A stretch of DNA of 64,000 nt from Flaccisagitta enflata. Lineage: Eukaryota. Within the stretch, counting starts at the first letter, position 1. Each line of letters opens with the position of its first letter. The DNA lies in NCBI GenBank assembly GCA_965153355.1, contig OZ231126.1:5146001-5210000 (forward strand), in the 5' to 3' direction. Position numbers and translations under genes: made by a program. A model generated the notes under the pieces. That model did not search any database, was not told the origin of the DNA, and worked only from the letters and a program-made list of their open reading frames with translations. Positions 46,201-52,200 of the stretch are shown in pieces.

Positions 46201-49200
46201 GGAAGCCCTTAAATATCTATATATAAGTTACAAGCAAGGTCTAGTGGGGCGTTGGTCATCGAGAAATTAGTGTGTGGATGAATTAGCAAAAACTGAGGAA
46301 AGATATGTTCCGAGCTACTACTTATGAGTGTGTCTGATTTAGGGTTAAGGCCTAAGGGTAGCCTGGGTAGGTTGTGGTGAGACCTAGGTTTGAGGTTAAT
46401 GGTAGGGTTGAGGTTACTGACAAGGTTGAGGTTAGGTGAAGACAAGGGTTGTGTTGAAGTATTGTTGAACAACATAGCGAATGGCCAATAAATAGGGTCA
46501 TCTTTTACACCTTTTCCAGTTGTCTTGTGCGTGTGCTTGTGGTCTCCGTGCGATGGACGTTCGGCCTTCGTGTTCGATGGCATGGGAGGAGGAGGAGGCA
46601 TGAACAATCCCAGATATACGGACCGAAGCGGAGCCCACGTCATTCCTAATCCGGTGAGAAATCCGTCAAGATTATGTGAAGTTGTGATGGAAATCATGAA
46701 AAGTAAATGAATTAGCAAAATTGACTGAATTTGATATTAAAATCTCTTTTAACAGATTGGTGGAGGAGTGTTTTGTTCATCAATAACATGATTACTTGAT
46801 TATATGAGGTTGTGATGGAAATCATGAAAAATATAGGACTGAGCAAATTTGGTTGAATCTTAATATTGAAATCTCTTTCAACAGATTGTGGGCGAAAGCG
46901 GTGGATTGGAGTGCAGATGGCACAACTACAACTGCCACAAAACGGACAGCATTTGCAGCTTGCAGCCCGACAAACCAGATTGCAAGTCAGTAGTTTTTCA
47001 TGACACTTTTTTCTTGTGGGGGGGCGGGGCTCTAATAAAGATAATTGACCATTGACCGCTGGATTGTGGACACGCTTCTTGCTTTGCTGATATTGCATCA
47101 ATGACCCCTTACTTTGTTGTTAATGGTTCCTTTGTTGTTAATGATTCCCTACTATGTTGTCAATGATTCCTTCACACTGTTGTTAATGATTGCTTCACAC
47201 TGTTGTTAATGACTCCTTCTTACTTACTGATTCAATCTCAGATGCGAGGAAACGAAAGACATTTGTCCCGAGCCTGAGGAGGGAAAACGCGCGCATTGCT
47301 ACATGTCTTGGAAAAACGAAACTGGTGAGTTAACAAGGGGATTGCTACTTGTCTTGGAAAAACGAAACCGGTGAGTTAACAAGGGGATTGCTACACATCT
47401 TGGAAGAACGAAACTGGTGAGTTGACAAGGTGATTGCTACATGTCTTGGAATAAGGCCAACACCTCTAAGTCGCTTGTGGTTGTCAATTGTAAAAAACAA
47501 AAATTCAAAATGTAAAATGACATAAAATGACAAAAAGAGTTAACGGAGACGGCCCGACTGATGGACCGACCGATGGACCAACCGACTCACCAACCGACCG
47601 ACCAACATAGATGTAAAGTCGCGTAGCACGCAACTAAAAACAAAACTGGTGAGTTAAAAAGGAGATTGCTACAAGTCTTGGAAAAACAAAACTGGTGAGT
47701 TAAAAAGGGGATTGCTACATTACTTGGAAGAACGAAACTGGGAAGTTGATTGCTGCAGTTTTGGCAAAATGAAACTGGTGAGTTATCATGGGGATTTTTG
47801 AGTGTGAAGGTTGCGTAGAGACAACAGTCAACAGCTACTAACAGCAACAATAGCGCAAGAATGATGGCGATGACATCAGCACAAGAAAGACATAAGTTTG
47901 GGAACTTGGGTACGAAAACTATGAGAACAGGACAGCAGCATGAGAAATTGTATGAATACAATGAGTACATGAACAACCACAGTAAGAGATCTCCGACAAC
48001 AACTGGAGTACTAGTAGTCTAGTACTTCCTGGGTTGGCACGCTAATTTTAGCCACTTGAAAAAAGCCGGATTAAACCGGCTGGATTAAATTGGCTTTTTT
48101 CAAACAATTTTTGAAAAAAGCCAGCTAAAATTGGCTTTTTTCAAAAATTTTGTGTAAAATCACCGGAAATCCAAAAATTTTCCAAAAACCTAGTTTTTCA
48201 AAGAATATTTTTTTTTGCCTGACATCGATGATGACTCTCTGGCGCTTTTGGAAAATCCTGAGGATGAAACGGTGACTTAGGTTTGATCAGGTGAGAAACA
48301 TCAAAAGGTGACTGCAGCTTGAACTGTTTTTGATTCCATTGCCAACAAGGTCAATTATAGCTGTTTTTATCATCTTGCACTATATATCAACATTATTTTA
48401 TTATTTCTGTACTGATTGCTACTACTTCCACAGCGCATTTTTGAAAAAATCCGGCGCTTGAAAAAACACAGGATTTTAGCCGGTTTAATCTATTTTAGCC
48501 GGCTAAAATTGGCTTTTTTCAAAAAAGTGGCTTTTTTGCCAACCCAGAGTACTTCGCGAGATAAACAGCATCAATAGCGCGGGATTAACAGCGACAATAG
48601 CGCGGGAATAACAGCGACAACAGCGCAACAAAAGCGCTGAGAGAATCCCATTTATCATTCATTGCCCAGGCACGCCTGAACTGGTTCGCGCTGGTTGCTG
48701 GCTAAATGACGCCGGCTGCTACGGCCAAACCGATGCATCTCTTTAAATGGTTCCTTCTGTATTCATTGACTAGGAACGCCTGAGCTGGTTCGCGCTGGTT
48801 GCTGGTTAAACGACGCCGGCTGCTACAATCAAACCCAATGCATCTCTTTAATTGGTTCCTTCTGTATTCATTGACTAGGCACGCCTGAGCTGGTTCGCGC
48901 TGGTTGCTGGTTAAATACGCCAGTTGCTACAATCAAACCCAATGCATCTCTTTAAATGGTTCCTTCTGTATTCATTGACTAGGCACGCCTGAGCTGGTTC
49001 GCGCTGGTTGCTGGCTAAACGACGCCGGCTGCTACGATCAAACCCAATGCATCTCTTTAAATGGTTCCTTCTGTATTCATTGACTAGGCACGCCTGAGCT
49101 GGTTCGCGCTGGTTGCTGGTTAAATACGCCAGTTGCTACAATCAAACCCAATGCATCTCTTTAAATGGTTCCTTCTGTATTCATTGACTAGGCACGCCTG

Positions 49201-52200
49201 AGCTGGTTCGCGCTGGTTGCTGGTTAAACGACGCCGGCTGCTACAATCAAACTCAATGCATCTCTTTAGATGGTTCCATCTGTATTCATTGACTAGGCAC
49301 GCCTGAGCTGGTTCGCGCTGGTTGCTGGTTAAACGACGCCGGCTGCTACGATCAAACCCAATGCATCTCTTTAAATGGTTCCTTCTGTATTCATTGACTA
49401 GGCACGCCTGAGCTGGTTCGCGCTGGTTGCTGGTTAAACGACGCCGGCTGCTACAATCAAACTCAATGCATCTCTTTAGATGGTTCCATCTGTATTCATT
49501 GACTAGGCACGCCTGAGCTGGTTCGCGCTGGTTGCTGGTTAAACGACGCCGGCTGCTACGATCAAACCCAATGCATCTCTTTAAATGGTTCCTTCTGTAT
49601 TCATTGACTAGGCACGCCTGAGCTGGTTCGCGCTGGTTGCTGGCTAAACGACGCCGGCTGCTACGATCAAACCCAATGCATCTCCACGAAAGGCGACAAC
49701 GACGGCGTCCACTTTTGCTGCTGCGAAGGCAACATGTGCAATCAAGACTTTCTCCCGCCGGCGCCCGTCGACGTCGATTTTACGTCTCCGGCTACTGGTA
49801 AGGATCTTTTAATGTTCGATGCCTTAACAAGTTTTGATAGTATAACTTATCTCGAGCCGAACTTCTGTTTGTTGTAATGCCAAAAGAATGGTCTCGGCTG
49901 CGCCATAGGTTACTGTTAAGGTATATCATCCCCTCTTTCTCCATCTCCCCCTCTTTCCTCCCTATCCCTTTCCTCCCTCACCTTTTCCTCATCTTCCCTC
50001 TCTTTCCTCCCTCTCCCCTTCATCTCTTTCCTCCCTCTCCCTTCATCTTTTTCATCCCTCTGCCTTTCCTCTTTTTCCTCCCTCTCCCCTTCCTCTCTTT
50101 CCTCTCTTTCCTCCCTCTCCACCTCATTTCTTCCCTCCCTCTCCCCTTCCTCATTTCTTCCCTCCCTCTCCCCTTCCTCATTTCTTCCTTCCCTCTCCCC
50201 TTTCTAATTTTTTCCCTCTCTCTCCCCTTCCTCATCTCTTTCATCCCTCTCCCCTTCCTCACTTCTTTCCGCCCTCCCCCGTCTCCTCTTCCTCTTTTAT
50301 TCTGTCCCCTCCCCCTCCTCATTTCTTCCGCCTCTCTCCCCTTCCTCGTCTCTCTCCTACTTCACCTGTTCCTCATCCTTTACCCCGTCCCTCCCCCTCC
50401 CCTTCTCTTTTATCCCTCTCCCCCCCCATTTCTTCCCTTCCTCACCCCTCCCCTTCCACCTCTCTTCCGTCCCTCTTCCCTTCATCTCTTTCCTTCCTCT
50501 CCCCTTCCTCATCTCTTTCCTCCCTCTCCCCTTCCTCATCTCATTCCTTCCTTCTCTCCCTCCCCCCCCCTCATCTCCCCCACCCCTCCAACCCTCTTCT
50601 CTGCTACACCTTTCAGTCGAAGCTACACCTGTTCCTACGTCTCCTCCTCACGCTACGATCGGTTACGCTTTGATCATCCCGATGGTTGGTCTGTTGTTCA
50701 TCGCCATCGCTTACGCCATCTACCGCCGTCAAAAGTCGTTGGACTCGCATCACGTTCCCGTGCCTACGGTCGGAGATGACGGAGAAGAGGAAGATCGGTC
50801 TCCAGGAGGAACGCCGCATCTGGGAAGACTCAGACCCATTCAATTGCTCGAAATCAAGGTTTGTTGTTGTCGTTGTTGTTGTTGTGTGGGTTTTGTTCCC
50901 GGATATTTTTAGAGTGGTGAAGTTGGTCCTACTTATTCAAATTTTTCTGTAGATGCGGCTTTTGTCCTTCTTTTGATCAACCAATGAGTCAAAATGTCAA
51001 TCAATTTTGATGATTTTTTTTTTTAAAAATCATTCTCTCAATGAAATTTTCTTTGTTTTGTTTATATTTGTCATCAAATGAAGCGATCTTTTATCTGTCA
51101 ATCGGTCAATAAGTCAATCGGTCAACAACTCTATCGTTTAGTCAATTGCGGTACTCTGAAATCCATCTATCTTTCTCTATGATTCGGCACAATTGTTCTC
51201 GTAATTGAAGTAGCTTTAAACAAAACTCGTAATCTGACCAATCTTTTTCCGTCTATGGTCTATCAACTGGTCTTATAACCCTTCTGCAAAGTAGTGGCTG
51301 CCAAAAACTGTCTGGCGACGGCGTGACGCTTCGATCAATCCTTTTCCATTGAATCATCCATTCTAATCCATCCATTTTAGTTCAGTGAAATCGCAATCCT
51401 TTGCATCTATTTCTATCCATATTCATGTCTCTCTACCCATGTTAGTACAGCTTGGCTTCACTAGAGCGCATTTCGAGGGACTGAGCAAAAATATGCCTTA
51501 ACTATCAGTTATAGTGAAGCTGCCTTACTGCCAACATTGAAATAAGTACAAAATCTCTAATGGGACAGAAGGTGGAATGCCTTATAGGCGGGCATGCCTT
51601 ATTAGCGGGTGCGCTCTAGCGAAACTCCACTGCAGTTGGTTCTTGTTGTTATTAGGTGTTACTTGTAATTACTTGTTACAATTACCCTTGTAGGCCCGCG
51701 GTCGATTCGGCGCCGTCTGGAAGGCGCAAATGTCTCAAACTGAATCCGTGGCCGTGAAAATCTTCCCGCTGGCAGACAAACAATCTTGGATCACTGAACA
51801 AGAAATCTATTCGCTGCCCGCCTTAAAACACGACAACATACTGAGGTACGGGGATTGCTCAGGACAGCTTGATGATGATAACGTCGAGGAAAAAATGAGG
51901 GAGTCGCTGAGATACATACAGTTGAACGGTCCCGCAATAACCAATGTCATGGGACTGACAAATTTAAGCAATTACAGGCGGATTTTTACCGTTGATGATA
52001 TTAAAAGAAAATAATTCAAGGGGACAAAATTTTTATATCCATTAATGCTAAATTTTGTCATTCTTGTATCGGTTATAGCGGGGTGTAATTGTACTTTTTC
52101 TCCGAGGTACAGTCAGCAACTTTATTCATTTTCATCCAGTTCTATATTTTCTAACCCCACTCTCGCATTCTTCTCATGTCTGTCTATCTCTTTCAGGTTC

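Follow-up and report, generated by a model that had tools for sequence, protein, structure and literature searches.

Introduction

Minisatellites that reiterate a splice donor across an exon–intron junction are known from five human genes, F7, IFI6, CBS, LMNB2 and PDGF (PMC1557585). The F7 array in intron 7 (intervening sequence 7, IVS7) has 37-bp monomers in 5–9 copies, IFI6 (6-16) has 25 pseudo-sites, intron 13 of CBS has 15–20 copies, LMNB2 has a 100-bp monomer in 10–15 copies and PDGF an 81-bp monomer in 16–18 copies (PMC1557585). Splicing of F7, LMNB2 and PDGF takes place at the authentic, most upstream site alone, whereas two pseudo-sites are active in addition in IFI6 and CBS (PMC1557585). 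The present study concerns intron 3 of an activin type II receptor gene (ACVR2/punt type) in Flaccisagitta enflata, where a 105-bp minisatellite repeats the acceptor side of the intron and a 46-bp minisatellite its donor side. The gene lies in a stretch of 64,000 nucleotides (nt) of contig OZ231126.1 (assembly GCA_965153355.1, positions 5,146,001 to 5,210,000), hereafter called the window, and all coordinates below count from its first letter.

Like arrays of the F7 IVS7 type, the 105-bp array consists of head-to-tail intronic monomers, its terminal monomer holds the authentic junction and its pseudo-sites are identical or nearly identical to the authentic one; its monomer size and copy number lie within the range of the human junction minisatellites. 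The human cases reiterate the 5′ splice site, whereas the part repeated here is a 3′ splice site with its pyrimidine tract and 73 exon nt. The last site must win at this locus and the first in arrays of the F7 type, and the machinery involved also differs (branch point, U2AF, choice of AG). The 46-bp array is a direct counterpart of the F7 class, since its first monomer spans the junction and its most upstream donor is the one used in the RNA run X7 (see below). Unlike the human cases, intron 3 carries junction arrays at both ends. The 46-bp array is a plain new member of the donor-side class, and the 105-bp array is the acceptor-side mirror image of that class.

Two other described phenomena are related. 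Tandem repeats on exon–intron boundaries of human genes in segmental duplications alter the extent of introns and can give alternative transcripts, and 27 such ‘intron modifications’ are reported (PMC2812944); the cases come from comparison of paralogues and mostly involve repeats that belong to an exon in one copy but are removed by splicing in the other. Tandem duplication of a segment that holds a splice site, or a proto-splice site, is also a route to new introns (PMC2891723). As in the cases described there, the spliceosome would remove the extra copies at our locus and leave the mRNA unchanged, but there a new intron arises from one duplication in an exon, whereas here an existing intron has been lengthened and ten copies are present. 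Literature text searches, with most subscription journals outside their reach, yielded no description of an acceptor-reiterating minisatellite, which is weak evidence of absence.

Structure of the acceptor array

The exon structure of the receptor gene was derived by tblastn with the protein of a relative (P0002) and from spliced contigs of run X7, a marine metatranscriptome that does not stem from the sequenced individual. The exons around intron 3 and the parts of the acceptor array are:

Up to 46653, plus strand: exon 1 (tblastn with P0002, X7 contigs)
46885–46985, plus strand: exon 2 (tblastn with P0002, X7 contigs)
47242–47324, plus strand: exon 3, ending in ...WKNETG, with its authentic donor GT at 47325–6 (tblastn with P0002, X7 joint 46985>47242)
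48657–49611, plus strand: pseudo-acceptor array, nine full monomers and the 13 intronic nt of the tenth (Tandem Repeats Finder, TRF; unit alignment)
48668–9, 48772–3, 48877–8, 48981–2, 49086–7, 49190–1, 49295–6, 49400–1 and 49505–6, plus strand: pseudo-acceptor AGs (unit alignment)
49610–49611, plus strand: acceptor AG leading into the complete exon, the putative authentic 3′ splice site (only copy 10 reaches the Cys box)
49612–49797, plus strand: exon 4 in our count, 186 nt, phase 1 at both ends; its first 73 nt (49612–49684) are the repeated part
50617–50858, plus strand: exon 5 (joint 49796/7 to 50616/7 with GT..AG ends)

With its repeated exon part, the array extends over 48657–49684 on the plus strand within the receptor gene (TRF: period 105, 9.8 copies, 94% matches, score 1832); a period of 209 also fits, slightly better, with 96% matches. 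Its ten head-to-tail units start at 48657, 48761, 48866, 48970, 49075, 49179, 49284, 49389, 49494 and 49599, and are 104 nt long in copies 1, 3 and 5 and 105 nt long in copies 2, 4 and 6–9. Each opens with 13 nt that close in AG, continues with 73 nt identical or nearly identical to exon positions 49612–49684, and ends in 19 intron-like nt, which together with the 13 nt of the next unit place 32 nt of intron ahead of each AG from copy 2 onward. The repeated unit is therefore the 32-nt 3′ end of the intron plus the first 73 nt of exon 4, and the last monomer (from 49599) carries AG 49610–11 and runs on into the remainder of the exon. The 32-mer at the exon start occurs ten times in the window (eight times exactly, twice with one mismatch), against no occurrence in 100 shuffles. 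An earlier note, made from the letters of this stretch, had described a ten-copy 105-bp array of an acceptor plus the first 73 exon nt at 48655–49797. TRF and the unit alignment bear this out, and the end given is the true end of the exon; the start lies 2 nt before the TRF start at 48657.

Three pairs of copies are identical (3 and 5, 6 and 8, 7 and 9), in line with the higher-order structure that the note had proposed (copy 3 like copy 5, copies 6–7 like copies 8–9), and copy 4 equals copy 10 across the 86 nt compared. Copies 3 and 5 are marked by clustered changes, namely three substitutions and a 1-nt deletion, and the most divergent unit is copy 1 at the outer edge (8–13 differences). Counted from the exon start, the sites that tell copies apart are +2 (copy 2), +11 (copy 1), +33, a cluster at +38–47 (copies 3 and 5), +54 and +62. 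The AG is intact in all nine pseudo-acceptor copies. In the 13 nt before the AG and the first 32 exon nt, seven of the nine (copies 3–9) match copy 10 throughout, copy 2 differs at one position and copy 1 at three.

Intron 3 is a phase 1 intron, and translation in the spliced frame meets a stop in each of the nine upstream copies, directly after ...CISL(N/D/I)GS(F/I)CIH in the six 105-nt copies and after ...ASL in the three 104-nt copies. All of these stops sit more than 50 nt ahead of the next junction. Copy 10 alone stays open past the repeat into the Cys box (CCCEGNMCN). Translation thus confirms the earlier reading of 105-nt units with an in-frame stop, of frameshifted copies 1, 3 and 5, and of copy 10 as the only one that continues into the Cys box. 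It also follows from the sequence, as had been claimed, that productive mRNA needs the last acceptor and that use of an upstream one leads to a premature stop, and the X7 contigs agree.

Two GT dinucleotides within the unit, ATG/GTTCCT and TCT/GTATTC (the slash marks the potential cut), delimit open in-frame segments of 81 and 90 nt in the six 105-nt copies, and no donor of the GTRAG type is present in the units. Eight donors read in the receptor gene are GTGAGA, GTCAGT, GTGAGT, GTAAGG, GTTTGT, GTACGG, GTAAGT and GTAAGA, of which seven are GTRAG-like or close to it; the two candidates within the unit are dissimilar to all eight.

Reiterated acceptors or coding segments also occur in NAGNAG acceptors, which lie 3 nt apart and give two in-frame products, and in tandemly duplicated, mutually exclusive exons, each copy of which has both splice sites and an open frame. 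The array shares the reiteration with these systems but belongs to neither of them. Its AGs are spaced 104–105 nt apart, not 3, and its units include no more of the exon than its first 73 nt, run into a stop in nine of nine copies and lack a plausible, GTRAG-like donor. A minus-strand open reading frame (ORF) of 219 amino acids through copies 5–10 was likewise rejected as a gene, being open merely because the 105-nt unit is free of stops in that frame. Compared with 1.84 billion representatives, it had five matches at E up to 0.001 (22–29% identity) and none below 1e-10; these are taken as probable chance matches to repetitive proteins.

DNA runs and transcripts

Two DNA runs bear on the array. 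Run X1 is a public run (share 0.70) that possibly comes from the source individual or from a relative of it, and run X3 is marine metagenome DNA from another study than the best-holding run. With a single mismatch, contig 14 of X3 spans 49550–49684, passing over a unit junction and ending on the last repeated base, exactly at the 73-nt boundary. The next contig (15) begins at 49655, 30 nt short of the first unique base. These ends probably mark a fork in the assembly graph, at which the same 30-mer continues either into the next unit or into the rest of the exon. As the contig crosses a unit junction, the independent sample contains at least two adjacent units, and the duplication did not arise as an artefact of assembly; the argument against a mis-assembly, which had been drawn from the pattern of variants, thereby gains separate support.

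The depth of X1 over the seven array bins is 83, 123, 601, 77, 281, 118 and 89 (mean ~196), compared with ~90–190 on single-copy flanks and 1e4–1e5 on nearby dispersed repeats. The unit is therefore specific to this locus and no genome-wide repeat. The summed depth fits about 1 kb of array, the depth measure not being itself a copy number.

Contig 18 of the RNA run X7 joins exons 1, 2 and 3 with GT..AG joints and ends in nine letters that match the start of a unit, placed directly past the first donor at 47324/47325. Contig 20 runs unbroken from 49623 to 49796, through the 73-nt boundary, and is joined to exon 5 (50616). Over 48556–49479 the X7 depth is 0 in five of six bins and 1.19 in the sixth, compared with 4–12 over the exons. 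These contigs represent the canonical mRNA and are consistent with exclusive use of AG 49610–11. The single base between them (49622) is a site at which copy 1 differs, by a synonymous change (GAG/GAA), and the gap is read as a population variant that split the assembly, not as a sign that copy 1 was used. Run X7 also uses the first donor of intron 3 and the downstream acceptor of exon 2; wherever the data speak, the splice site that adjoins the intact exon is the site used.

The runs depart from the window at two positions in this region. At 49644 the window has C and both X7 and X3 have T, which is the state of most inner copies, and at 47275 the window has T and runs X1, X3 and X7 have A. 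These differences are population variants or the outcome of gene conversion between copies.

The host gene

Exon 4 encodes the C-terminal half of the activin type II receptor ectodomain; 113 nt of it lie beyond the repeated part, and its donor is GTAAGG at 49798. Its peptide matches the Pfam family Activin_recp (PF01064) with 21.3 bits against a cut-off of 20.9, and aligns to residues 50–97 of the solved ActRIIA/ActRIIB ectodomains in PDB at E 1.9e-16, with BMPR2 at 0.004. The three-finger ectodomain with the CCCxGNxCN box, as in an ACVR2/punt gene, is thus present. Exon 5 is 87% identical to P0002 across a hydrophobic stretch, and the kinase exon at 54430–54618 is closer to ActRIIB/IIA (E 1.2e-24) than to TGFBR1 (2.7e-11). 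Single exons match the Pfam kinase families mostly below the whole-domain cut-offs. A single transmembrane segment and a Ser/Thr kinase nearest to ActRII, as in ACVR2/punt, are accordingly present. A kinase exon begins near 54215, and much of the intron directly before it is occupied by an 18-bp repeat at 53942–54178 (13.2 copies, 97% matches).

The proteins of three relatives (P0001–P0003), 61–68% identical over the exon, each contain a single copy of the repeated segment. All three stop about 15 residues past ...LLEIKV with a common tail ...PVML/F and have no kinase, their sequence continuing across the point at which the window has the weak exon 5 donor GTTTGT; such proteins may represent a conserved isoform that is anchored in the membrane but lacks the kinase. 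The window has a different read-through tail after exon 5 (50859–50925), a TGT microsatellite, and the conserved C-terminus of the relatives was not found in intron 5. A scan of metagenome contigs with the alignment of the exon 4 peptide to P0001–P0003 gave 200 pattern stretches, none of which was confirmed, and a scan of such contigs for the 34-nt string at the unit junction gave no match.

Other repeats

Several features that the earlier note had not taken up lie close to the array, namely the 46-bp donor repeat, a duplicated acceptor of exon 2 and a high content of minisatellites in the window; it had also made no connection to the known class of junction minisatellites. The features of introns 1 and 3 concerned are:

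47295–47785, plus strand: donor-side 46-bp minisatellite, with two blocks at 47295–47451 (3.4 copies) and 47636–47741 (2.3 copies) and a further unit
47370/1, 47416/7, 47648/9, 47694/5 and 47777/8, plus strand: intact pseudo-donors G/GTGAGTT (repeat alignment)
47740/1, plus strand: dead pseudo-donor G/GGAAGT (repeat alignment)
46670–46759 and 46798–46888, plus strand: two-copy direct repeat that runs from the 3′ end of intron 1 over the acceptor and 4 nt into exon 2
48017–48578, no strand assigned: high-copy element in intron 3 resembling a miniature inverted-repeat transposable element (MITE) (X1 depth 1e4–1e5)

In the 46-bp unit, 30 nt come from the end of exon 3 and 16 nt from the start of intron 3, and the first monomer spans the junction between them, so that the authentic donor of exon 3 is followed by five intact pseudo-donors and a dead one. 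The two blocks of the array are parted by a very high-copy repeat (47478–47631) with an X1 depth above 1e5. The two copies at the exon 2 acceptor are 84–90% identical and spaced 128–129 nt apart; the X7 transcript takes the downstream AG at 46883–4 (joint 46652/3>46884/5), and the upstream AG at 46754–5 is a pseudo-acceptor. The MITE-like element has 36-nt terminal inverted repeats at 48056–48091 and 48487–48522. One X1 DNA contig is without it (joint 48016>48579 with 4 other letters), which makes it an insertion polymorphism.

TRF reports 72 rows at a score of at least 100 in the window. By summed TRF intervals, arrays with a period of at least 20 take up ~7.1 kb of the 64 kb (11%) and ~2.1 kb of the ~9.5-kb gene span (~22%). 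Random placement predicts 2–4 of the ~20 junctions in arrays, and two lie in TRF arrays; a mutational process targeted to junctions, considered because three junctions around exons 2–4 are duplicated, was rejected since chance coverage suffices. Elsewhere in the window, a clean minisatellite at 5825–6488 (110 bp, 6.0 copies, 92% matches) has a unit with a good donor-like motif, ...CCCATG/GTGAGATAAAG. A scan of 46000–51000 against Rfam gave no match.

Discussion

In our view the 105-bp array is likely to be a young intronic minisatellite, specific to this locus and with its last monomer across the intron 3/exon 4 boundary of the ACVR2/punt-type gene, and to be a tolerated by-product of a repeat-rich genome. 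A 105-bp segment, of which 32 nt belonged to the end of the intron and 73 nt to the start of the exon, would have been duplicated in tandem and then expanded by unequal exchange or slippage, which would account for the identical dimers 6–7 and 8–9 and for the identical copies 3 and 5. Such a duplication would in principle have done the gene no harm, since its last copy is still joined to the remainder of the exon and the nine others just lengthen the intron; in mirror image, the argument also applies to the donor array. Productive mRNA would be formed by joining the most upstream donor (47324/47325) to the most downstream acceptor (49611/49612). Copies 3–10 are locally alike and differ only in what lies downstream, that is, the 113 nt and the GTAAGG donor, which suggests that the last acceptor wins by exon definition, since it alone would be backed by a whole exon with its enhancers and by a good donor 186 nt downstream. 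Use of a pseudo-acceptor, with its premature stop, would be expected to lead to nonsense-mediated decay (NMD). The earlier note had offered either NMD or a secreted truncated ectodomain as the outcome of upstream use; NMD is the better guess, and the secreted product is unlikely, as it would lack the CCCEGNMCN part of the fold. Nothing so far points to a function of the array, which is probably young and probably neutral.

A number of observations weigh against this account or leave parts of it exposed. The figure of ten copies comes from the assembly alone. The nine-letter end of X7 contig 18 fits nine of the ten copies, copy 2 being the exception, contig 20 begins 11 nt into exon 4, and no read or contig assigns the acceptor to a copy. 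Run X7, as a metatranscriptome with a depth of 6–10 whose contigs drop rare forms, is compatible with minor use of pseudo-acceptors, and the organism’s own polyA RNA run X9 (~6% of the run) is uninformative, with two aligned reads, none of them on exons, which may mean that the gene is scarcely expressed there. Copies 3–10 are identical in the 13 nt before the AG and in at least 45 nt after it, so that the local sequence leaves the choice unexplained. A scan for the branch motif yUnAy gave no site at the usual distance in any copy; sites were found only 4 and 8 nt from the AG, in copies 9 and 10, and do not discriminate. Two units did not form a more stable RNA fold than shuffled sequence (z +1.43; 186 of 200 shuffles folded equally well or better), and no inverted repeats join the donor array to the acceptor array, all 13 pairs found lying inside the 48002–48525 element. 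In early globin constructs whose acceptors had been duplicated, the proximal copy was used, according to PMC1557585, which also cites a contrary report. If that rule were valid here, the wrong site would be chosen and the gene would be dead. The conflict with the proximal-copy rule is the one point of real mechanistic interest.

Among the other explanations, the array might be a dosage device, in which nine pseudo-acceptors divert pre-mRNA into degraded, stop-containing transcripts and the copy number sets the receptor level, possibly with variation between individuals. Such a device would profit from AGs that are intact in nine of nine copies, from the exact authentic context of seven of them and from a stop that every pseudo-acceptor reaches more than 50 nt before the next junction; the identical dimers suggest a recent change in copy number, and the assembled contigs are compatible with minor isoforms. 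However, a young age and homogenisation explain the intact AGs equally well, similar repeats without evident function abound in the window, and the proteins of the three relatives give no hint of such a role. Nor is there a transcript signal of pseudo-acceptor use, the X7 depth being zero in all but one of the bins between 48556 and 49479, and we regard a dosage device as unlikely. A still smaller chance is given to the view that the duplication is real but that its copy number and higher-order pattern are exaggerated in the assembly by a collapse or expansion error in a near-identical array of 1 kb. An assembler could create three identical pairs of copies, contigs from short reads are unable to count copies, and X3 proves only two or more adjacent units and has no depth in the bins of 48556–49479. 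But X3 is also without depth over single-copy flank bins (e.g., 46400–47015), so its gaps are uninformative, the clustered changes of copies 3 and 5 are unlike read errors, and X1 has depth in seven of seven array bins, at a mean which, set against the flanks, fits ~1 kb and not 200 bp.

Splicing of the units as in-frame cassette exons, which the earlier note had envisaged, would give receptor isoforms with reiterated half-finger segments. Its arithmetic was right, as the segments up to ATG/GTTCCT or TCT/GTATTC are open and in frame, at 81 and 90 nt, in the six 105-nt copies. Neither GT, though, resembles any of the eight donors read in the gene, copies 1, 3 and 5 break the frame, and a repeated half of a disulfide-knotted fold would be unlikely to fold. 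With little or no RNA signal in the array and a single copy in the relatives, this possibility seems very remote.

Exclusive use of the last of the ten acceptor modules would mean that the 3′ splice site is not selected by local sequence. Branch site, pyrimidine tract, AG and exon start are the same in copies 3–10, and the choice would then come from further downstream, by exon definition. Donor-side minisatellites such as F7 IVS7 are natural models for the choice of a 5′ splice site, and this locus would serve in the same way for acceptors, with the donor array in the same intron as an internal control. To our knowledge, the locus would be the first natural test bed with ten identical competing 3′ splice-site modules, even if it is silent, and in this it would be the acceptor-side counterpart of F7 IVS7. 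It also carries a warning for annotation, because gene finders and spliced aligners can choose any of ten equivalent acceptors.

The acceptor and donor arrays of intron 3 could together form a splicing rheostat of variable copy number, with pseudo-sites siphoning into NMD a share of the pre-mRNA that depends on copy number, an idea that we hold to be quite unlikely. If it were true, a longer array would mean less activin type II receptor, and TGF-beta-family signalling in a wild marine animal would be tuned by a heritable element that mutates fast. Otherwise, the arrays are an ordinary consequence of a minisatellite-rich genome and of modest interest.

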